Shown piece by piece: positions 289-13,416 of a stretch of DNA of 64,000 nucleotides. The translations under genes and the position numbers were made by a program. The notes under the pieces were generated by a model. The model did no database searches and was not told the DNA's origin. It was given only the letters and a program-made list of their open reading frames with translations. This DNA comes from Escherichia phage vB_EcoD-Elw: sequence record OR621298; one strand, given 5' to 3'. Positions within the stretch are counted from its first letter, which is position 1. Each line of letters starts with the position of its first letter.

Positions 289-2163
289 ATGAATCGTAAT
301 GAAGAACTAAAATATAAAGAAATGCAGGCGTTAATTAGAAACTGCAAAGAGATTATCGAAGGGTCAGCGGATGAAGAGCTGCTGTTTAATAATGCCAATA
401 AACCCTCAGAACGTTTCCCTACACAGAGGGATATGCTTGCAGGTGAATTGAGTAAGTATCTGATTCTAGAAGAAATGCCAATTCAGATTCGAAATGCTCA
501 TATGATTGGGGATATTCATTTCCATGATGCTGATTATGCTGCATTAGGCATGACTAATTGTTGTCTGGTAGCTCTGGAAGATATGTTGAAGAATGGTATG
601 AAGGTTGGTAATGCTGAAATTAGCACTCCAAACTCTATCACTACTGCAGCGGCTATTACTGCTCAGATTATCACTCAAGTTAGCTCCCATCAGTATGGGG
701 GCACTTCCGTGGATCGCCTTGATGAAGTATTAGCTCCTTATGTTCGTAAATCCTATGACAAAAATCATGCGTTTGCAAAACGTTGGACTAAGGATGAAGC
801 CAAAGCATCAGTAATGGCTACGGAGATGACTGAAAAAGAAGTCTATGACGCTTGTCAGGGTTTAGAATATGAAATCAATACCATGTTCAACTCTAATGGT
901 CAGAGTCCATTTATTACCTTTGGTTTTGGTCTAGGAACTTCTTGGGAAGCACGTCTAGTACAGAAAGCAATATTGAAAGTACGCATGGATGGTTTAGGTA
1001 TCAATAAACGTACAGCTATCTTCCCGAAACTGGTATTTGTACTTCGTGATGGCGTAAATATGAAACCAGGGGATGTTAGTTATGACATCAAGAAGTTAGC
1101 TATGAAATGTACTGCTGAACGTATGTATCCAGATTATATCAGCTATGACAAGGTTGTAGAAGTTACTGGAGACTATAAAGTTTCTATGGGCTGCCGTTCA
1201 TTCCTAGCTGCTACAGAAGATGGTGAAACTGCTGGTCGTAATAACTTAGGTGTTGTTTCTGTAAACTTGCCTAGAATTGCTATCGAAGCTGAAGGAAATA
1301 TTGATCTATTCTTTGATTTGCTTGAGCTACGTGTGGATACAGCGTTAAAAGCATTGGAGTGGAGAGTTGATCGCTTAAAATACATCCAAGCTAAAGCTGC
1401 ACCCATCCTCTATATGTCAGGAGCCTTTGGGTTACGCTTGGAGCCTGATGAATATGTATTCGATCATTTCTATAACCGTGCTTCTGTATCTCTAGGATAT
1501 ATTGGTTGCCATGAAATGCTACAGTTCATGTTTGGCAAAGATGTAGATACAATGTCCGAGACCTGCATCAAGTTTGTTCAGCGTGTGCTGCAGTACATGC
1601 GAGATAGAGTCGATCAGAAGAAGGAGGAGACTAAGTTAGGTTATAGCCTGTATGCTACACCGTCGGAATCCCTATGCGATCGTTTTTGTCGTCTAGACCG
1701 TGAATATTTCCCGGAGCATGAAGATATTCTGTCCAAAGGATACTACACTAACTCTCACCACCTTGATGTGGAACGTAAAGTTGCTCCCAACGTGAAATTT
1801 GATTATGAATCTAACTTTACTCCGATTGCTTCTGGTGGGTGTATTTCCTATGTAGAACTACCGGATATGAAACGATTCCCAGATGCACTAGAATGGGTTA
1901 TTAATTATGCTGCTAGTAAAGTTCATTACTTCGGTATTAATACTCCGGTGGATTCTTGTGGTAAATGTGGATTCTTAGGTGAAACAGTAGCATCCGAAGA
2001 TGGGTTTAAGTGCCCTATCTGTGGTAATCATGACCCCGAAACTCTTGAAGTAACTCGTCGAGTTTGTGGGTATCTTGGAAATCCAGGTGCTCGTCCATTT
2101 AACCCAGGCAAACAGCATGAGGTTATGGGCAGAGTGAAACATCAGGATATTCGAGCTAAATAA
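289..2163 (+). CDS. nrdD: anaerobic ribonucleoside-triphosphate reductase (class III RNR)
   Basis: 624 aa; C-terminal glycyl-radical motif RVCGYLG and Zn-ribbon CGKCGF...CPICG. Confidence 0.85.
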   Translation: MNRNEELKYKEMQALIRNCKEIIEGSADEELLFNNANKPSERFPTQRDMLAGELSKYLILEEMPIQIRNAHMIGDIHFHDADYAALGMTNCCLVALEDMLKNGMKVGNAEISTPNSITTAAAITAQIITQVSSHQYGGTSVDRLDEVLAPYVRKSYDKNHAFAKRWTKDEAKASVMATEMTEKEVYDACQGLEYEINTMFNSNGQSPFITFGFGLGTSWEARLVQKAILKVRMDGLGINKRTAIFPKLVFVLRDGVNMKPGDVSYDIKKLAMKCTAERMYPDYISYDKVVEVTGDYKVSMGCRSFLAATEDGETAGRNNLGVVSVNLPRIAIEAEGNIDLFFDLLELRVDTALKALEWRVDRLKYIQAKAAPILYMSGAFGLRLEPDEYVFDHFYNRASVSLGYIGCHEMLQFMFGKDVDTMSETCIKFVQRVLQYMRDRVDQKKEETKLGYSLYATPSESLCDRFCRLDREYFPEHEDILSKGYYTNSHHLDVERKVAPNVKFDYESNFTPIASGGCISYVELPDMKRFPDALEWVINYAASKVHYFGINTPVDSCGKCGFLGETVASEDGFKCPICGNHDPETLEVTRRVCGYLGNPGARPFNPGKQHEVMGRVKHQDIRAK

Positions 2164-2170
2164 GCTAATC

Positions 2171-2203
2171 AGCCGGGTTGCTAGTCGACCTGGCTTTTAT
2201 TTT
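2171..2203 (+). terminator. rho-independent terminator after nrdD
   Basis: 8-bp stem agccgggt/acctggct (one G-U pair) followed by a T-tract. Confidence 0.6.
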
Positions 2204-2205
2204 AT

Positions 2206-2234
2206 TTGCTTTCAGCCAAAAATTTATATATAAT
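2206..2234 (+). promoter_or_regulatory. early sigma70 promoter with conserved leader
   Basis: TTGCTT 2206-2211 and TATAAT 2229-2234, 17-bp spacer; leader ataaatttgagaggag precedes the ATG. Confidence 0.7.
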
Positions 2235-2262
2235 AGATTTATAAATTTGAGAGGAGAAAGAT

Positions 2263-2643
2263 ATGGAATTAAAGCACTATATAGTTGAATCTACATGTGG
2301 TAGTTTCCATCTGGGTGTAGATGATGTTGCTGAGGCTGTCTTTGCTGCCACAGGTGATTACTCGCATATAGAGGGTGTTGGATACCCTACCATTATTGGC
2401 GATTGGGTGGGAACAAATCTAGATGTATCACCTTATAACCCATATTGCTTGTTTGATGAAGACAGAGATGAAGTAAAATGTAATCTTGAATTTGTGTATA
2501 ATAGAGTGTTAAAAGTATACCAACGTAGCCCCAATGGGTACGAAGATATTACTTGGAGTATTAAACAGTATCTTAAAGATGTGTACTCTAGTTTTTCTGA
2601 CGAAGACCTAGAAACAGTTGCAGTGGAGTTTAATAATGACTAA
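2263..2643 (+). CDS. hypothetical early protein
   Basis: 126-aa ORF directly behind a strong promoter and RBS. Confidence 0.55.
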   Translation: MELKHYIVESTCGSFHLGVDDVAEAVFAATGDYSHIEGVGYPTIIGDWVGTNLDVSPYNPYCLFDEDRDEVKCNLEFVYNRVLKVYQRSPNGYEDITWSIKQYLKDVYSSFSDEDLETVAVEFNND

Positions 2644-2842
2644 GAATGTGAAACACCTTAAATATCGCTTAATTTACAACGGACGTATGGAAACAGAAGA
2701 TCTGGCCCAGTTAGCTATTAATTCTAATGAGGTTACGGTGCGTGCGCTGGCAATTGAAAAGTTGCGTGCTTCTTATGAAAATCGTGTTATGGAACTAGAG
2801 GAGAAACTTTATGGCATTCTCGAAGCCGATGCTACCAGATAA
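2618..2842 (+). CDS. hypothetical small protein
   Basis: 74-aa ORF, start overlaps the upstream stop. Confidence 0.35.
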   Translation: MQWSLIMTKNVKHLKYRLIYNGRMETEDLAQLAINSNEVTVRALAIEKLRASYENRVMELEEKLYGILEADATR

Positions 2843-3032
2843 GGGTTTAAACTCCGCTTTGGAAAACGCATTAATGCAGCACTGGGAAACTGGCTATAAG
2901 GATGGTGTTGAATCCTGCGCTACTATGCTAGAAGTTATTGCTAATACCTTAATGGAGAAAGGCAATAAAGAATTAGCTGAGCTATTAGACAGTATTGGGC
3001 AAAACTTCAGAGAACAGGTGAAAAATGCGTAG
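2811..3032 (+). CDS. hypothetical small protein
   Basis: 73-aa ORF in a tightly packed operon. Confidence 0.35.
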   Translation: MAFSKPMLPDKGLNSALENALMQHWETGYKDGVESCATMLEVIANTLMEKGNKELAELLDSIGQNFREQVKNA

Positions 3033-3849
3033 ATTAATTATTATTAGCGGTGCAGGTTTGAGTGTTGAAAGTGGTGTACGAGCTTTTCGTACTGATACTG
3101 CTAGTGGTAAAGCACTGTGGGATGATTATGATCTAGAAGAAGTATGTAATATTCATGCCTTTCGTGGTAATTTTTATCATAAAACCCATATGTTTTACAA
3201 CAAGCGTCGTGAAGAGCTAAAAACTGTTGAACCTAACCTTGCGCATCTTCGTATTGGTGAGTGGTATAAACAATACCCAGGTCAAGTAGTAAACTTGACT
3301 ACCAATGTTGATGACCTTATTGAACGTGCTGGCGTTCCACATAGTGACATTCTGCACATTCACGGATATTTAAAAGAGGTTGTTGTAGCTGACAGCTACA
3401 ATAGTAGTAATAAACGAATTATTGATGTTGGGTATAACTCTATTGACCCAGATGATTATAAATGGGTTAAACCTAATGTAATCTTCTTTGGTGAGCATGC
3501 TCCAGCATATACAGAAATGTACAATGTTTTTGATGGTATTACCAGTCAAGATATGATCATTGTGGTTGGTTGCTCTAACCAAGTAATTAACTTCTACTGG
3601 GAATTATTTCCTGTTCTTAATTTGACTGCTGCCAAATTAATGGTAGTTAACTACTATGATAGTGCCCTAGCGACAGAGCCGGGCTACCAAGGTATGACTC
3701 GTAGTGAGATGTACCAGCTGGAAGAACGCGGTATCCCTTACTGGAGTAAAGGGGCTGTAGATGCCTTCAGTGACCCTGATTTTATTGCTCGTGTAGAAGC
3801 TCATCTAGAGGGTAGACCTTATATGCCGGGGAAACAAATATGTCCATAA
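3025..3849 (+). CDS. SIR2-like NAD-binding protein without a Zn-ribbon
   Basis: Sirtuin motifs ISGAGLSVESGVRAFR, TTNVDDL, IHGY, KPNVIFFGE, VVGCS; no CxxC...CxxC pair. Confidence 0.6.
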   Translation: MRRLIIISGAGLSVESGVRAFRTDTASGKALWDDYDLEEVCNIHAFRGNFYHKTHMFYNKRREELKTVEPNLAHLRIGEWYKQYPGQVVNLTTNVDDLIERAGVPHSDILHIHGYLKEVVVADSYNSSNKRIIDVGYNSIDPDDYKWVKPNVIFFGEHAPAYTEMYNVFDGITSQDMIIVVGCSNQVINFYWELFPVLNLTAAKLMVVNYYDSALATEPGYQGMTRSEMYQLEERGIPYWSKGAVDAFSDPDFIARVEAHLEGRPYMPGKQICP

Positions 3850-4022
3850 TTAAATCTGTGTATACACACCCTGATGATATATTTGTATGGGCGGACGGTA
3901 GTTGGTGTTATCGCTGTGAGTTGTGGGAAATGGACTATAAATCCGATGACTATGGTGTTATATATGTGGATACGGTTGAGTATGATACGTTCTTAGAAAG
4001 GAACAAAAATGGAAATAAGTAA
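3840..4022 (+). CDS. hypothetical small protein
   Basis: 60-aa ORF, coupled starts. Confidence 0.3.
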   Translation: MSIIKSVYTHPDDIFVWADGSWCYRCELWEMDYKSDDYGVIYVDTVEYDTFLERNKNGNK

Positions 4023-4515
4023 TACTCCAATTATTTTTCTAGACATTGATGGGGTGCTCAATTCGAGCATCTCCCACCATCATGCACCTGATGATGAAAA
4101 GATTTTCTTTGGAAGTGACTGGGTTTTCAAACCACTTCTCAAGGCTTTTCAGGACTTTATTCGTCCTTCTCCGATAATGATTGTTGGAGTATCCTCATGG
4201 TTCTCTGTCAGGAATGAGATGGAGAACGTTCAGATTATGACCGGATTAGGTCTTATCGATCGTTTTCTTGGTACAACGGATTTTACCGGGGGTGGATTAT
4301 CTAGGGGTAATTCTGTTCTTCGCTTCGTTGAAAAGCATAAGCTCAAACATTGGTGTGTGCTGGATGATGCCGGTGCTATGATGTATCAGTATCCAACGGT
4401 TATAGTCAATGGTAGAACAGGAATAAATCTTCAGGATTTAAAAGCTGTTAGCTATATGCTAGAATTTAGCCCAGATCTTGAAATGTGTAAATCCTTACAA
4501 CAATTTAAGGTGTAA
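4009..4515 (+). CDS. HAD-like phosphatase (putative)
   Basis: N-terminal IIFLDIDGVLNS (HAD motif I) and a later LDDAG motif. Confidence 0.45.
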   Translation: MEISNTPIIFLDIDGVLNSSISHHHAPDDEKIFFGSDWVFKPLLKAFQDFIRPSPIMIVGVSSWFSVRNEMENVQIMTGLGLIDRFLGTTDFTGGGLSRGNSVLRFVEKHKLKHWCVLDDAGAMMYQYPTVIVNGRTGINLQDLKAVSYMLEFSPDLEMCKSLQQFKV

Positions 4516-4517
4516 AT

Positions 4518-4946
4518 ATGTTCAATAATGTATTCTCTAAAGAAGCTAACCCAATTTTGGTTAACTTTTGGCGTACTCTCCCGGCTAGCCTGTATAATGA
4601 GGCTATTAACTCCTTGAAAATATGGTGTGAGAATAACGAAATCTCCTTTGCTTTTAAAGATGATATTGATGAGGCCCCCTGTATTGGTCTAGTTGTGCAG
4701 GTAGAGGAGGGTCTTGAAGAGATTGTGGGCTGGAAAGAGTTAGACGAAATGGGCTTAGTTTTTGCGTTAAATTATAAGCTGTTTATGCCTGCTAAGCATC
4801 GCCTAGTTGTTAACTATAAAACTAGTGAATCTCCTGGTTTTCAGGTTAATGAACGTTATGGTTGGTCTTACTCACCGGAAGAAGTAAATGATGGTATCCA
4901 AAAACTTCGTCGTTTTGGTTATCAAATTCCGGGTTTAACCGCCTAA
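4518..4946 (+). CDS. hypothetical protein, tandem paralogue A
   Basis: 142 aa; shares DEAPCIGLVV, ELDEMGLVFALNY and YQIPGLT motifs with the next ORF. Confidence 0.5.
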   Translation: MFNNVFSKEANPILVNFWRTLPASLYNEAINSLKIWCENNEISFAFKDDIDEAPCIGLVVQVEEGLEEIVGWKELDEMGLVFALNYKLFMPAKHRLVVNYKTSESPGFQVNERYGWSYSPEEVNDGIQKLRRFGYQIPGLTA

Positions 4947-4955
4947 GGGGGCATA

Positions 4956-5348
4956 ATGGAACAAGTATATTGGCGTCAGATTGATCCTAGTTTGGTGAAG
5001 CGTGCGGAGAAGCTGCTACAACGTTGGTTGGTGGTAAGACAAGTCTCCTTCACTTTTCCGGAGCAGCAAACGGATGATCCATGCATTGGCGTTTTCCTGT
5101 CTGGATATGCCGGGGAATGGGAATTGGATTGGAATGAATTGTCTGCTATGGGCTTGATTGTTGCCCTAAACTTCTCTATATTCCATCCACGTGGTTTGGC
5201 CATATGTCGTGTGCCTGATGACGGTTGTTCGCCCCATCTTTTACAGGTGGAAGATGATATTTGGGAGTACACTCCAGATATTCTCGCAGAAGCTAAAGAA
5301 CAATTAAATCGTGTTGGGATTTATGTTCCGGGCTTAAATGATGGATGA
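4956..5348 (+). CDS. hypothetical protein, tandem paralogue B
   Basis: 130 aa; DDPCIGVF, ELSAMGLIVALNF and IYVPGLN motifs parallel the preceding ORF. Confidence 0.5.
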   Translation: MEQVYWRQIDPSLVKRAEKLLQRWLVVRQVSFTFPEQQTDDPCIGVFLSGYAGEWELDWNELSAMGLIVALNFSIFHPRGLAICRVPDDGCSPHLLQVEDDIWEYTPDILAEAKEQLNRVGIYVPGLNDG

Positions 5349-5439
5349 TTTTTATTAGCTAAACTCTGATTACCGAGTCATTTTGGCTCGGTTTTATCCG
5401 TACTTAAGACCAATGATAGCACCATCCGGAAAATTTTAC

Positions 5440-5468
5440 TTGCATGATGCCCAAAATCTTGATATAAT
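5440..5468 (+). promoter_or_regulatory. early sigma70 promoter with conserved leader
   Basis: TTGCAT 5440-5445 and TATAAT 5463-5468, 17-bp spacer; leader tatttatattgaattgagag. Confidence 0.6.
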
Positions 5469-5965
5469 ATTTATATTGAATTGAGAGACATTAGTAAAAA
5501 TTGATTTTGCTAATTTTTCTTGTTTACAATCCGCGATACGGAACAGTTAGGCTGCCCCATTAAGGGTTGTTTTAACTATTACTAGTGTTTATATTGCATT
5601 AGTTAATCTTCAATTAAGTGATCTGTGTACCCTGAATTCGGAAAGGTAAATCCAAACCGTGCATATTTAGCTCGTTATATAGGCAGAGTTTTATATGGGG
5701 GTGCGAACGAAAAGAGCAGCGAATGGCGGCACGTACAGTAGTCACCTACCAATAGGATAGTGAGGACAAATAGAATCGGCTTAGCGGCCAATGACCTAGG
5801 TTCTATTCTGTATATGAGCGAAGAGAGCACAGCACTGAGATATGATAACTTATTCATATTGCTTGATGATAATTAATGTTTACGTAAATAGTAGTAATAG
5901 TTGTTCTATTCTTTCTGAATAGTCCTAAAGAAAAGATTTCGATTAACCAACACAGGAGTATTGTT

Positions 5966-8755
5966 GTGTTTTCTATTCTCCAAGGTCACGCCGGATTTTC
6001 TCGTGATTTAGCAACAGGTATTTGGCGAGAAATCAAAGCGGAAGATTATACCTTTGCCAAGCGATTCTCGAAAAAGCATCCAGAAGGTAAACCAGCTTCT
6101 ATGCCCTTCAAATTTGATGTAATAGAAGAGCATGACCCGCAAAGCCTTGCCGAAATGTTACCACTTATGAGACGTTTAACGTCTGACCCTCATATCGTTG
6201 CGGTACGAGGTCGATGTCTTGCACCTAAAAATAACGTGCGACGTAAGAAAGGTAACTTTAATGTATCTAATCCTAGTAATATTATTGCTATGGACGTGGA
6301 TGGTATCCTAGATACCGGTGGGTATGACAAGTTTAACCTTGTTGGTATGGCCCGCCACATTATTAAGATGTTGAATAGTATTAGTGAGGACATGTTCCCT
6401 CTTGATGCAGGCTTTATAGCTCATGCATCGTCTTCGGCTGGGCTTAAACCAGGTATCCGAATGCACTTAATGCTAGAATCTAACGTCAAGGTAACTCAGG
6501 GTCAGTTAAAGTTCTTATTTACATCTATCAACGATAGTAGTAAGCAAAAATTTGGTTTTGATATTGCCGACTTAGCTTATTATTCATCTGTCCAGCTCCA
6601 CTATTTTGCCGACCCCTTATTTAGTGATGGTATTGTTGATCCGTTTAAAGCGGAGAGTAAGCCACGTCTGGTGTATGTTAAAGGTTCGAAAGTAAATTTG
6701 CCCAATAATCTGGTTGACTATGAAACAACTAGAGGGGAGTTTAAGGAAGAGTTTTATTCTTTACTTGATCAAATTAAAGGCAAAAAGATCGCGTCTGATA
6801 AAGTAGAAGAAACCATCAGCGAATTGGAAGAAGCTGAGGATGGGGTGTACCTGCGTATTATCCCCAAACTATACCATAGAGCATTAGAGGATGGTGTTGA
6901 TTTTGCATGGCTAGAACGTGAGATTAAACCCGCTTTATCTGAATATATTGCAACTAAAGATAACAGTCGTAATATTCAAGATTACTTTAATAACGGTCGT
7001 AAGCAGGCTCTCAAAGCGTTTGTTAATAATTCTAAACGTGAGATTCCATTAAATCTGAAAGGTGTTCCGCTCAAGAAGTTAGAAGTGGATTCTCCACCAG
7101 AAGTTCCGTACCTGAAGATTAACATTGTGCCTCCAAAAGGCCATATAACATTTGTTAAGGCAAGTCTTGGTACTGGTAAAACTACGGCAGTAACTAAATG
7201 GCTGGACGCAGGTGTTCTTCCTGGCAACTTTTTAGCAGTTACAAATACTAGAGCACTGGTATCTTCAAACGCTAAGAAATTTAGCGCAGGACAATATGAT
7301 AAGTCTGTAGATATGCTCAACTTTAAACGTGGAGCTATTGATCGTATGTCCACAACTATTCACTCTTTGCATAAGTTCAAAAGTTTTATTGGTCAAATAG
7401 ATACCATTTTTATTGATGAATGTGATGCTGTAATGAATGATCTATTATTCGCACCTGTTGTTAAGCAACGTCGCGAATGTATTCAAGTTCTACGTGACAT
7501 CCTCATGACAGCTAAAACTGTAATTCTATCAGATGGTGATATTAGTGCCGAAACTATTGAAGCATATGGTTCTCTAATTGATTTTGATAAACCAGTAGCA
7601 TTTTATAATCATCACCGTAAGATGCTGTCAAAAGCTCATGCTTATGAGTTCCCGGATGAGTCCAGTATTTGGGTTGCACTTCAGACTTCTCTAGAGATGG
7701 GTGAGAAATCTATCCTAGTATCTGATTGTGGGCCGGATGAACTGAATGAGAAGGGCATGGCGTTGCGTCGTAATACGGGTGCATTAGTTAAGGAAATCCA
7801 CTCAAACTCTACGTCTGATGTAGATATTAGACGTATTCTGGATTACACAACTAATGAGCTAATTGACCAACAAATTGATTGCTTATTATGTAGTCCATCT
7901 GTAACGAGTGGTGTTGACTTTAACTATTTTGATAACGTATTCGTTATCACTAGAACTAGCAACCAAGCGCCAAACATGCGTTTCCAAGCAATCAGGCGCG
8001 ACCGTGGTGCTCAGAATATCTATTATTTTATTGATAAATCCACTAGTGGGTTCTCCGCAGGTTCTGAACAATATAATATTGATGAAGGTTGGCTGGAGTT
8101 AGCACAGCAATTATACGCACGTCGCAGAGAACTAGAATCTAGGAACTATACTAGTACTTTACGTTATTACTTGCTTGATCAGGGTGCAACTATTGATATT
8201 TTCAGCGAAAGCTGGGGAACTATTGAAGGTGCTGGTAAAGAATACACAGAAGAGCGAATCAAAGCTATCCTACATTCAACTCCGGATTACTGTGCACCAC
8301 GTCATGCGGATGCGTATGAGGCTAAACTACTTCTTGTTCGCTATTATCATCTTGAGTCTATTAAAGATGTAACAGTTGAGCATGTTGAACAATATATCAA
8401 AGATAAACCGAATGATCGAGCTGCATTCTTCCATAAGATGCACGAGATGTTCTGGGAAGATATTAAGAAGTGTTCAAATGTGACCATTAAACCATTCATA
8501 GAGGCTCTGAAAGGTAAGAAGAAAGACTTCTTCCTTAAAACAGGTCAGAGTGCTAACCCAAAATATGCTAGAATGTATCTTGGTATGATGGGTATTGGTA
8601 AGGATATGAACACTGAAAATATTGTAGACTGGTACAGAACCTATTGTAAAATCGAGTGTATGCCAATCCCATATAAGTTTATGACTGATGAGGAGAAACA
8701 TATGCATGATGAAGCAATGGCAGAGCTAGGTGCTAGAAATGACAGTGAAGAATAA
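5966..8755 (+). CDS. P-loop NTPase, putative helicase or replication-initiation ATPase
   Basis: 929 aa; Walker A SLGTGKTTAV and DEAD-like IFIDECD; GTG start with AGGAG RBS. Confidence 0.55.
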   Translation: MFSILQGHAGFSRDLATGIWREIKAEDYTFAKRFSKKHPEGKPASMPFKFDVIEEHDPQSLAEMLPLMRRLTSDPHIVAVRGRCLAPKNNVRRKKGNFNVSNPSNIIAMDVDGILDTGGYDKFNLVGMARHIIKMLNSISEDMFPLDAGFIAHASSSAGLKPGIRMHLMLESNVKVTQGQLKFLFTSINDSSKQKFGFDIADLAYYSSVQLHYFADPLFSDGIVDPFKAESKPRLVYVKGSKVNLPNNLVDYETTRGEFKEEFYSLLDQIKGKKIASDKVEETISELEEAEDGVYLRIIPKLYHRALEDGVDFAWLEREIKPALSEYIATKDNSRNIQDYFNNGRKQALKAFVNNSKREIPLNLKGVPLKKLEVDSPPEVPYLKINIVPPKGHITFVKASLGTGKTTAVTKWLDAGVLPGNFLAVTNTRALVSSNAKKFSAGQYDKSVDMLNFKRGAIDRMSTTIHSLHKFKSFIGQIDTIFIDECDAVMNDLLFAPVVKQRRECIQVLRDILMTAKTVILSDGDISAETIEAYGSLIDFDKPVAFYNHHRKMLSKAHAYEFPDESSIWVALQTSLEMGEKSILVSDCGPDELNEKGMALRRNTGALVKEIHSNSTSDVDIRRILDYTTNELIDQQIDCLLCSPSVTSGVDFNYFDNVFVITRTSNQAPNMRFQAIRRDRGAQNIYYFIDKSTSGFSAGSEQYNIDEGWLELAQQLYARRRELESRNYTSTLRYYLLDQGATIDIFSESWGTIEGAGKEYTEERIKAILHSTPDYCAPRHADAYEAKLLLVRYYHLESIKDVTVEHVEQYIKDKPNDRAAFFHKMHEMFWEDIKKCSNVTIKPFIEALKGKKKDFFLKTGQSANPKYARMYLGMMGIGKDMNTENIVDWYRTYCKIECMPIPYKFMTDEEKHMHDEAMAELGARNDSEE

Positions 8756-11281: not shown

Positions 11282-11470
11282 ATGAAAGTAACACTTCCAA
11301 AAATTCAAGCAAAGTTAAATCTAGTATCGAATGCTAGAAATAACTATCTAGATAACTTTGGTGGAATCAACGATAAAGCGTACAAAGATGCGTGGTTGAA
11401 AGAAGCACAAGAGTTAGCCGATCTCATTGCTCAGTATAATAAAGAACTACAGGTAGAAATGAATGACTAA
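11282..11470 (+). CDS. hypothetical small protein
   Basis: ATG at 11282 with AGAGGA RBS; the ORF track begins at an upstream TTG. Confidence 0.45.
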   Translation: MKVTLPKIQAKLNLVSNARNNYLDNFGGINDKAYKDAWLKEAQELADLIAQYNKELQVEMND

Positions 11471-12434
11471 TGTAAAAGACTTTATTAAACGTTGCCAAGA
11501 AGCATATTATCAAGGTATGTCTTTAATCTCTGATGAGGAGTATGATTGCCTGGTAAAACGCTTCCCACTAGAAGAAGAGATCGGGCCTAAGGGCGATATT
11601 CCACATCTGTATCGTATGTATTCTTTACAGAAAGTTTATTATAATCGTGGAGATAAACCCCCATTTAACCCATTAGGTCAGGTAGAAACTGACAAGTTAG
11701 ATGGTTGTGCGATTTCTCTACTATATATTAATGGCGAATTTGTTCAAGCACTAACTCGTGGTAATGGTATTCTAGGGAATGATGTCACAAGCAACGTAAG
11801 ATTGCTGAACATTCCTAAAAAGATTTCCCAAAAAGTACCTACTCAAATCACTGGTGAAGTTCTAATTACAAAAGAAGTAGAAAATAAACGTAACTTTGCC
11901 TCTGGTGCTATTAACCTAAAAGATAGTGATGCTTTCGTACAACGTATCGGGGAAGGTGGTTTAATCTTCGTTGCATACGGTATCCAGTGTTCTGCTGAAT
12001 CTGTAGGTATTACAGAATCATATTTAAAAGATATGCTTTGGCTAGAGAATGAAGACTTCTTAACAGTTGTTAATGTGCGTTCCTTCTTTAGATGGATTCC
12101 GACGGACGGTAAAGTTGTTCGTATTAATGACAACAACAAATTCTTCCGAGAAGGCTGGACTAATAAATTCCCTCGCGGGGCGTTCGCTATTAAAGAGGAT
12201 GAAGAAGGAGAGATTACAACTCTTACTAAAGTTGAATGGCAGGTAGGGGCTTCTGGTAAAGTAACTCCAGTTGGTTATTTCGAACCGGTAATTATTGATG
12301 ATGCTACAATTGTTAAAGCGACTCTTAATAACGTTGATTATATTAACTCTCTCGATCTAGAGATCGGTTGCCAGATTCGAGTGATTCGTGCTGGTGGTGT
12401 AATCCCGTGCATAGTAGAGCGAGTATACTATTAA
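11463..12434 (+). CDS. NAD-dependent DNA ligase, N-terminal adenylation subunit (split ligase)
   Basis: 323 aa; KxDG adenylation motif in TDKLDGCAISLLY; a separate ORF carries the C-terminal ligase domains. Confidence 0.6.
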   Translation: MTNVKDFIKRCQEAYYQGMSLISDEEYDCLVKRFPLEEEIGPKGDIPHLYRMYSLQKVYYNRGDKPPFNPLGQVETDKLDGCAISLLYINGEFVQALTRGNGILGNDVTSNVRLLNIPKKISQKVPTQITGEVLITKEVENKRNFASGAINLKDSDAFVQRIGEGGLIFVAYGIQCSAESVGITESYLKDMLWLENEDFLTVVNVRSFFRWIPTDGKVVRINDNNKFFREGWTNKFPRGAFAIKEDEEGEITTLTKVEWQVGASGKVTPVGYFEPVIIDDATIVKATLNNVDYINSLDLEIGCQIRVIRAGGVIPCIVERVYY

Positions 12435-12606: not shown

Positions 12607-12636
12607 ATTTATATAAATTGATAAGGAAGAAATTTG

Positions 12637-13416
12637 ATGAAAATCGAAATTCCAACACAATGTCCCTCTTGTGGTTCTAAGCTAGATCTTGTCAACGGAC
12701 AATTATTCTGTCGTAATAAGTCCAACTGTCCAGCGCAATCAAGCAAGTTAATTGAGAACTTCTGTTCAAAAATGAAGTTAAAGGGCTTTGGCCCAAAAAC
12801 TATTGAGAAGCTGGAGCTGACGAAGATTTCAGAACTATTTTACCTAACCGAAGAAGATTTGGTTAGAGCCGTGGGTAGCAAGGTTGCCGCTAAGTTAATT
12901 AGCGAATTAAATACTAAAGTTCGCGGAGACATTGACTTTGGTTCAGTTCTCGGTTCTTTAGGAATCCCTCTAATTGGAGAGGTTGCAGCAAAGAAATTAT
13001 CCCAAAATTGCACTAGCTTTCACGATGTGAAGGCTGACGGCAAGGCTGGAGAAAATTACAAAGCCTGGCTAAATTCCCCACAAGGCAAGGATGTTATTAA
13101 ACTACCGTGGAAATTTTCAACTGGTATTAAGGGCACTAAAGCTGACGTCATCATTACAGATGAATTAGTTGCCCAGCCAAATGGAATCGCGGTATGTATT
13201 ACCGGATCTTTGCAAGATTTTGCAAATCGAACGGATGCAACAAACTATTTAGAAGGTCTAGGATATACGGTTAAGAAATCCGTTACCAAAGACGTCAAAT
13301 ACCTAATCTGTGAGGATGAATCAAAACGTTCTTCCTCATCTTATAAGAAAGCCGAAACGAATGGGATAGAAATCCTGTCGATTAAAGAACTATTGGAGAA
13401 AAATAATAATGTCTAA
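12637..13416 (+). CDS. NAD-dependent DNA ligase, C-terminal subunit (Zn-finger/HhH/BRCT-like)
   Basis: Cys4 cluster CPSCGSK...CRNKSNCPAQ near the N-terminus; ATG at 12637 with AAGGAAG RBS. Confidence 0.55.
   Translation: MKIEIPTQCPSCGSKLDLVNGQLFCRNKSNCPAQSSKLIENFCSKMKLKGFGPKTIEKLELTKISELFYLTEEDLVRAVGSKVAAKLISELNTKVRGDIDFGSVLGSLGIPLIGEVAAKKLSQNCTSFHDVKADGKAGENYKAWLNSPQGKDVIKLPWKFSTGIKGTKADVIITDELVAQPNGIAVCITGSLQDFANRTDATNYLEGLGYTVKKSVTKDVKYLICEDESKRSSSSYKKAETNGIEILSIKELLEKNNNV

Follow-up and report, generated by a model that had tools for sequence, protein, structure and literature searches.

A CobB-related sirtuin without zinc ligands in the T5-like Escherichia phage vB_EcoD-Elw, a candidate lysine deacylase

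The window, by which we mean the whole stretch of 64,000 nucleotides (nt) analysed from Escherichia phage vB_EcoD-Elw (sequence record OR621298), carries at positions 3025-3849 of the + strand an open reading frame (ORF) of 274 amino acids (aa) that encodes a sirtuin, the orthologue of T5.102 of phage T5, identified from the ORF list, the Pfam and PHROG profiles, the DNA match to related phages and an AlphaFold2 model. The ORF starts with an ATG at 3025 and ends with a TAA at 3847-3849, a Shine-Dalgarno sequence AGGTG can be read at 3016-3020 (+ strand), 4 nt ahead of the ATG, and there are overlaps of 8 nt with the upstream ORF and of 10 nt with the downstream ORF. The location of the ATG within the end of the upstream ORF predicts that translation of the two genes is coupled. 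An earlier note on this DNA, made from the letters alone, had described the product as a phage-encoded SIR2-like protein, and this description proved to be right, since all the motifs it quoted are present, i.e. GAGLSVESGVRAFR at residue 9, TTNVDDL at residue 92, HG at residue 113, PNVIFFGE at residue 150 and VVGCS at residue 180, and the Pfam SIR2 profile (PF02146) matched the protein with an E value of 6.9e-25 and 88.5 bits (cut-off, 24) over 178 of its 180 positions (1-178). PHROG 2162 ('Sir2') matched at E = 1.4e-121, and by these profile scores the assignment to the sirtuin family is far past chance. The AlphaFold2 model had a mean predicted local distance difference test score (pLDDT) of 90.2 and a predicted template modelling score (pTM) of 0.88, residues 23-29 being the only internal stretch of low pLDDT.

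The gene itself is already known, being the long-annotated Sir2-like gene of T5-type phages. The region 2000-6000 of the window was 93-96% identical at the DNA level to T5-like phages (Tequintavirus, Demerecviridae), T5 included, and the T5 record AY543070 lists the orthologue, T5.102, as 'putative Sir2-like protein'; the other T5 record, AY587007, labels the same gene 'cobb: putative transferase'. A translated search of 50,697 phage records found homologues in 1008 of them (about 2%), with identities of 48-99% in T5-like phages, 56-64% in Vequintavirinae and Mydovirus, about 52% in Escherichia phages of 145-155 kb (e.g. nieznany), about 37-41% in jumbo phages and about 36-41% in KVP40-like Vibrio phages, the closest match being that of Phage NBEco001 (99.6%). 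A 2.7-kb record named 'Listeria phage LM 4-11-1' (OR847503.1) holds a sirtuin 98.5% identical to that of the window, and in the records 'Campylobacter phage D#' and 'B15' (MG065647.1, MG065650.1) both the sirtuin identity and the record size are like those of the matches in Vequintavirinae and the 150-kb Escherichia phages; these Listeria and Campylobacter records are probably mislabelled or contaminants.

The earlier note had suggested that the protein resembles the nicotinamide adenine dinucleotide (NAD)-cleaving SIR2 domains of bacterial defence effectors more than the classical deacetylases. To establish the type of sirtuin, we used Pfam, PADLOC, NCBIfam, a sequence search of the PDB, and Foldseek with the AlphaFold2 model, and this suggestion did not hold. 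Whereas SIR2 PF02146 matched the protein, neither Pfam SIR2_2 nor any of the PADLOC SIR2 defence models gave a match at E ≤ 1. In the PDB sequence search Escherichia coli CobB came first (1.4e-17), followed by Sir2Af2, Sir2Af1, SIRT5 and Sir2Tm, and the best 50 Foldseek matches were all CobB, Sir2Af, SIRT5 or Sir2Tm, plus one SIRT2, with CobB at 4.4e-18 and a template modelling (TM) score of 0.84 normalised to the CobB length. The values listed in the structure comparison were 21.0 for Sir2Af1, 19.2 for PfSir2A, 17.2-17.7 for SIRT1, SIRT4, SIRT2, Hst2 and yeast Sir2, 14.6 for SirTM, 13.9 for SIRT6 and also for PsSIR2 (cryo-electron microscopy entry 8w9l), which we take to be a defence SIR2, and, for further defence proteins, 12.2 for both ThsA and HerA-Sir2 and 9.5-9.7 for SIR2 of the Avs5 type. 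By this comparison the modelled structure is not nearer to defence SIR2 domains than to deacylase sirtuins, and the profile and structure searches by which the note had proposed to decide the matter came out for a sirtuin rather than for a ThsA/DSR-type protein.

The phage protein shares with the defence SIR2 proteins (ThsA, DSR2, SIR2-HerA and SIR2-STAND/Avs5) the Rossmann NAD core, and neither has a Cys4 zinc site. In contrast, the defence proteins belong to another Pfam family, always occur together with sensor or oligomerising domains, either in fusion or as partners, and act as NADases rather than as deacylases, whereas the product of the window gene is a single-domain protein, predicted to adopt the two-domain (Rossmann plus small domain) sirtuin fold, with no fused or adjacent SLOG, HerA, pAgo or STAND partner; the genes around it encode a HAD phosphatase and DUF7415 proteins or are small ORFs. 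Orthology to CobB was not supported by the NCBIfam equivalogs either, with 90 bits against a cut-off of 320 for prot_deacyl_CobB and 100 bits against 243 for PRK00481.1-3. We conclude that the protein is a divergent relative of CobB, not a CobB orthologue and not a defence-type SIR2, and that it is very probably a classical-type sirtuin with intact catalytic residues.

With regard to the zinc module, which the earlier note had declared missing, the loss of the ligands was confirmed, but the small domain that normally carries them is retained. The cysteines of the protein are limited to C41, C183 and C273; a CxxC motif is absent from it and from all 120 close homologues. The insert that constitutes the zinc-module counterpart (residues 115-149; positions 3367-3471, + strand) contains neither Cys nor His, leaving no Cys4 structural zinc site, and opposite the four zinc-ligand columns the alignment shows V121, N129 and a gap. 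Nevertheless, with 35 residues between HG and PNVIFFGE this insert is of normal length (median of 37 in cysteine-rich relatives), and the small domain was predicted by AlphaFold2 as three strands, 114-122, 131-134 and 147-152, with block-mean pLDDT values of 90-96, a three-stranded arrangement being the one expected for a sirtuin zinc module. The zinc ligands have thus been lost and, according to the model, the small domain has been kept as a metal-free three-stranded sheet, which provides a natural case of a sirtuin small domain apparently folding without structural zinc.

The origin of this domain was traced by a HMMER scan of 1.84 billion cluster representatives, which recovered 2981 relatives at E ≤ 1e-3 (767 at E ≤ 1e-10); the residue counts for family representatives refer to the best 141 full-length sequences of this set. 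Among the nearest 20 relatives 18 were cysteine-poor and 16 had Thr at position 93, and among those ranked 71-100 a complete CxxC...CxxC was found in 27 of 30 and the usual Gln in 24 of 30, a '(V/I)GY' motif within the module being common to the cysteine-poor and the cysteine-rich groups. The closest cysteine-rich relatives were chromosomal bacterial sirtuins (Helicobacter, Verrucomicrobiota, Malacoplasma), some of them on megabase contigs. The chromosomal location of these relatives, together with the graded loss of cysteines, indicates that the T5-type sirtuin has its origin among short bacterial sirtuins of an ordinary, CobB-like (class III-like) kind and that the cysteines were lost later. 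The absence of zinc ligands from the sirtuins of KVP40-like Vibrio phages was already reported in 2016, in a paper that also lists the T5 homologue (PMC5107563). Those proteins (phiSt2, phiGrn1) are, like that of the window, phage sirtuins without a zinc ligand and with a conserved catalytic His, and they come from another phage family, i.e. T4-like myoviruses with NAD salvage genes.

The active site was compared with that of CobB through the HMMER alignment, the CobB numbering being checked against mutant names in PDB titles and against two papers. The Rossmann NAD-binding motif, located from motif positions and conservation, extends from G9-A-G-L-S13 to F21-R22 (positions 3049-3090, + strand), and the cosubstrate loop starts here. 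T92-T-N-V-D-D97 (3298-3315, + strand) corresponds to the sirtuin 'TQNID' motif with Thr in place of Gln, and its residues N94, V95 and D96 are invariant. The catalytic His113 (3361-3363, + strand) aligns with H147 of CobB, and both H113 and N94 were in place in 141 of 141 family representatives. Acyl-pocket residues were recognised by alignment to CobB and by conservation in two further segments, C41, Y58 and R61 at 3145-3207 and V152 and F155 within P150-N-V-I-F-F-G-E157 at 3472-3495 (both + strand). The equivalences to CobB are A76 for C41, Y92 for Y58, R95 for R61, I131 for V95, V187 for V152 and F190 for F155. All of these and H113 were invariant in both the 77-member and the 121-member sets of phage homologues, and N94, D96, G9, A10, G11, S13, F21 and R22 were invariant in the 77 phage homologues. 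The protein therefore shows the catalytic His, Asn and Asp, the GAGxS motif and the FGE of F155-G-E157 that define the family, the Gln before the Asn being Thr, and it also possesses the class III Tyr-x-x-Arg pair (Y58, R61) with a small pocket residue (C41). The SIRT5 counterparts of C41, Y58 and R61 are A86, Y102 and R105. The conserved pocket cysteine at position 41 is not specific to phages, since most of the zinc-containing bacterial relatives (72 of 89) have Cys here too.

With CobB (PDB 1S5P, 6RXJ) and the class III enzymes SIRT5 and Sir2Af1 the phage protein has in common GAGxS, FR, N-x-D, HG and FGE, and also the acidic-acyl pair Y-x-x-R, together with a small residue where CobB has A76. 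It differs from them in being about 25% identical, far under the curated CobB thresholds, in lacking all four zinc cysteines, in having Thr for the TQNID Gln and V-I-N for V-Y-P, in about 60 extra C-terminal residues, and in the setting of its gene, which belongs to a lytic phage and shares an operon with a HAD phosphatase gene. Five of the CobB positions, A76, Y92, R95, I131 and V187, are the active-site residues that were randomised to alter its acyl specificity (10.1101/723684), and desuccinylation by CobB needs Y92 and R95, de-2-hydroxyisobutyrylation R95 (PMC6636992).

The residues of the pocket lead us to favour, tentatively, an NAD-dependent lysine deacylase as the biological activity of this protein. 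The invariant C41, Y58 and R61, as counterparts of A76, Y92 and R95, suggest that, besides acetyl, the enzyme prefers acyl groups that are acidic or short and polar (succinyl, malonyl, 2-hydroxyisobutyryl). The protein descends from bacterial sirtuins of the deacylase type, and bacterial zinc-containing relatives carry the same pocket residues. In addition, the clade is uniformly acidic, with a median isoelectric point (pI) of 5.2 and a net charge of -12, compared with 6.0 and -5 in the bacterial relatives; such acidity would be unusual for an RNA-binding enzyme and speaks, weakly, for a deacylase. The mechanism can be outlined from the conserved residues. NAD+ would enter the Rossmann cleft formed by G9-S13, F21-R22, N94 and D96, and the acyl-lysine would enter the hydrophobic tunnel of V95, V152, F155 and H113; the acyl carbonyl oxygen would then displace nicotinamide from C1', H113 would activate the ribose hydroxyl, and free lysine and O-acyl-ADP-ribose would be released. 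The targets would be host or phage proteins early in infection, and the product derived from adenosine diphosphate (ADP)-ribose may be removed by the neighbouring HAD protein, or by Nudix or cREC proteins in other phages. The proposal of the earlier note that the protein might modify host proteins thus remains the leading idea, now in the tentative form of a deacylase, and it would mean that a lytic phage rewrites host lysine acylation early in infection. T5 offers a tractable model for settling the function of phage sirtuins.

The genes that surround the sirtuin in this and other phages have suggested a different function. In the window, a gene at 4009-4515 (+ strand) encodes a HAD-superfamily phosphatase that matches Pfam HAD_SAK_2 (4e-20), a family described as 'HAD domain in Swiss Army Knife RNA repair proteins' and present in 498 phage records. 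Erwinia phage KEY and a 92-kb contig have the HAD_SAK_2 gene upstream of the sirtuin, so that within the Demerecviridae it occurs on either side, which indicates that the adjacency survives rearrangement. Among Vequintavirinae-like phages, the sirtuins of Mydo (gp165, 61% identical to that of the window), of Vequintavirus navn (56%) and of a 153-kb uncultured phage (the three within 56-61%) adjoin genes for RNA_lig_T4_1 (Rnl1-type), cREC_REC, an AAA_33 kinase and Metallophos, and then for an ATP-dependent DNA ligase, and in the jumbo phage PBECO4 the order is SIR2, a Nudt16-like Nudix and cREC. One T5-like lineage (locus L009) has the sirtuin followed by DUF7415 genes and no HAD gene, and no recognisable RNA-repair gene or HAD_SAK_2 was found beside the sirtuin of Vibrio phage nt-1. 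The neighbourhoods seen here correspond to the three configurations distinguished by Iyer, Burroughs, Anantharaman and Aravind (2022), who proposed a Tpt1/KptA-like role on RNA 2'-phosphate for the clade (PMC9503650). The T5-like example of those authors, SP15, is a Tequintavirus, the genus of the closest relatives of the window, and our protein belongs to their clade (Escherichia phages SP15 and V5, Proteus phage Mydo, Serratia phage BF), as a close relative of the SP15, V5 and Mydo sirtuins with the same HAD_SAK_2 neighbour as in their configuration 3 and no structural difference from the rest; the T5-type operon differs in lacking the RNA ligase, cREC and kinase of the other configurations.

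In the same set of loci, Mydo carries genes for nicotinamide phosphoribosyltransferase (NAMPT) and phosphoribosyl pyrophosphate (PRPP) synthetase about 5 kb from the sirtuin and on the opposite strand (L002:1-1133), a possible link of phage NAD supply to an NAD-consuming sirtuin. The navn gene navn_52 (L003:6777-7490), labelled 'putative Sir2-like protein', was discarded as a second sirtuin, since it has no SIR2 Pfam match and its product is 35% identical to a MazG-like nucleotide pyrophosphohydrolase of Mydo; it is a mis-annotation beside the true sirtuin.

Several observations weigh against the deacylase. The neighbourhoods (HAD_SAK_2; RNA ligase, cREC, kinase and metallophosphatase; Nudix) point elsewhere and were read as RNA repair by Iyer et al. 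(PMC9503650). Within the protein, the Gln of TQNID is replaced by Thr, and the substrate-binding strand of CobB, V219-Y220-P221, is V187-I188-N189, although the Tyr of this strand is mostly absent in the bacterial relatives too. The pocket residues, being kept in those relatives, may reflect an inherited scaffold rather than prove the present substrate. The top NCBIfam matches are CobB-type deacylase models, all far under their cut-offs (90-100 bits versus 243-320), and no experimental study of this protein was found in the searchable literature, which leaves out most subscription journals. According to the published alternative, the sirtuin would take ADP-ribose off NAD+ and attach it to the RNA 2'-phosphate left by a defence nuclease that cuts tRNA; the ribose 2''-OH, assisted by His113, would next attack and free ADP-ribose 1'',2''-cyclic phosphate and leave a 2'-OH, and HAD_SAK_2 (elsewhere cREC, Nudix or metallophosphatase) would either make the RNA end ready or break down the ADP-ribose product. 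We regard this scheme, the main rival of the deacylase, as somewhat unlikely. The scheme was put forward for exactly this clade, its neighbourhoods were re-derived independently here, HAD_SAK_2 is located one to two genes from the sirtuin with the adjacency kept in two T5-like gene orders, and at least three unrelated phage groups have genes predicted to process RNA ends next to the sirtuin. The two chemical steps parallel those of a sirtuin, so the kept His113 would fit, but it fits both readings, and HAD, Nudix and cREC could equally process the ADP-ribose product of any sirtuin reaction. Moreover, a search with tblastn revealed no homologue of the RNA ligase, cREC, the polynucleotide-kinase-like protein or the metallophosphatase in the 64-kb window, so that an RNA-repair pathway of the T5 type would be incomplete, at least within the window; HAD_SAK_2 is missing from one T5-like lineage, and nt-1 has no such neighbours. 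The functions of HAD_SAK_2 and cREC are themselves predictions, genes for nucleic-acid enzymes abound in the early regions of phages, and the narrow hydrophobic lysine tunnel with its invariant acidic-acyl pair Y58/R61, as well as the strong acidity of the clade, argue against an RNA substrate. As for Tpt1/KptA, only the proposed chemistry is common to it and to the phage protein (NAD dependence, displacement of nicotinamide by a substrate oxygen, 2''-OH attack); the fold, of the ADP-ribosyltransferase superfamily, is unrelated and there is no likeness in sequence or structure, which makes it an analogue at most. By this analogy one can envisage that the zinc-free T5-type sirtuin is not a protein deacylase but the first RNA-acting sirtuin, which together with HAD_SAK_2 would use NAD+ to remove 2'-phosphates from, or otherwise heal, tRNAs cut by the anticodon nucleases of host defence; this we consider unlikely. 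A Tpt1-like function, if true, would bring RNA within the reach of sirtuin chemistry and give phage counter-defence a new arm against tRNA-cleaving systems.

Two further activities were weighed. A mono-ADP-ribosyltransferase that modifies a host or phage protein or nucleic acid and stops after nicotinamide release, as in SirTM, is permitted by sirtuin chemistry, and the Gln-to-Thr change in TQNID and the V-I-N strand suggest some remodelling near the ribose; beside the jumbo-phage homologue there is also a Nudt16-like Nudix, a family that can trim ADP-ribose adducts. This activity is nevertheless improbable, since His113 is invariant and the neighbours examined yielded no macrodomain. SirTM enzymes have Gln for the catalytic His and a macrodomain partner (PMC4518038), and membership of that class was rejected on both counts. 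Still less probable, and very improbable in our view, is the idea of the earlier note, by which the protein would act like an NADase SIR2 on host NAD pools or against defence systems that deplete NAD. NAD binding without zinc ligands, as in many defence SIR2 domains, and the NAMPT and PRPP synthetase genes near the Mydo sirtuin are in agreement with this idea, but SIR2_2 and PADLOC matches and a fused or adjacent sensor domain are absent, and the loss of zinc took place in a lineage of ordinary sirtuins. The role against NAD-depleting defences is unsupported because a sirtuin consumes NAD; such consumption cannot restore NAD, and the ligase of the phage itself needs it.

The sirtuin gene belongs to an operon whose genes abut or overlap throughout and whose upstream limit in the window is a terminator-like hairpin after nrdD (2171-2195, + strand) that matches the terminator annotated after nrdD in T5. 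In the T5 annotation the operon starts at a promoter after that terminator and stops at a terminator before the gene of the origin-binding protein. A simple promoter scan of the operon gave 12 sites, compared with 11.9 expected in shuffled sequence, and the bounds of the operon rest therefore on the T5 annotation and on the hairpin. Three small overlapping ORFs of 126, 74 and 73 aa (2263-3032, + strand) form the head of the operon, just downstream of the promoter annotated in T5, and are followed by the sirtuin gene, by a 60-aa ORF that overlaps both neighbours (3840-4022, + strand; phrog_5116), and by the HAD_SAK_2 gene. The last two genes encode DUF7415 proteins, an orthologue of T5.106 (4518-4946, + strand; Pfam 1.1e-35) and a paralogue orthologous to T5.107 (4956-5348, + strand). 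Whereas the tight packing is directly observed, early expression of the operon would follow from its place in the DNA-metabolism region of T5, which we take to be expressed early.

The set of small genes around the sirtuin is variable. The 73-aa ORF directly upstream of it (phrog_5827, window 2811-3032) is replaced in the T5 record AY543070 by a 55-nt gap, and the T5.103 ORF, located in T5 between the sirtuin and the HAD gene, is absent from the window (3849-4009). Domain fusions were considered as a functional clue and set aside as uninformative; the metagenomic relative P0146 (521 aa) has two SIR2 domains in tandem, and other distant relatives are fusions to WG or RHS repeats.

The NAD-dependent ligase that the earlier note had mentioned for the same lytic T5-like phage is present and split over two ORFs, 11463-12434 (adenylation plus OB) and 12634-13416 (HhH plus BRCT), an arrangement like that of ligA/ligB in T5. 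Finally, phrog_18062, which is labelled 'Sir2 (NAD-dependent deacetylase)', matched the HAD_SAK_2 phosphatase over residues 77-168, with 6e-58. This label looks like a propagated mislabel, and as a result of it 'Sir2' appears twice in those RefSeq annotations of T5-like phages that are based on PHROG.

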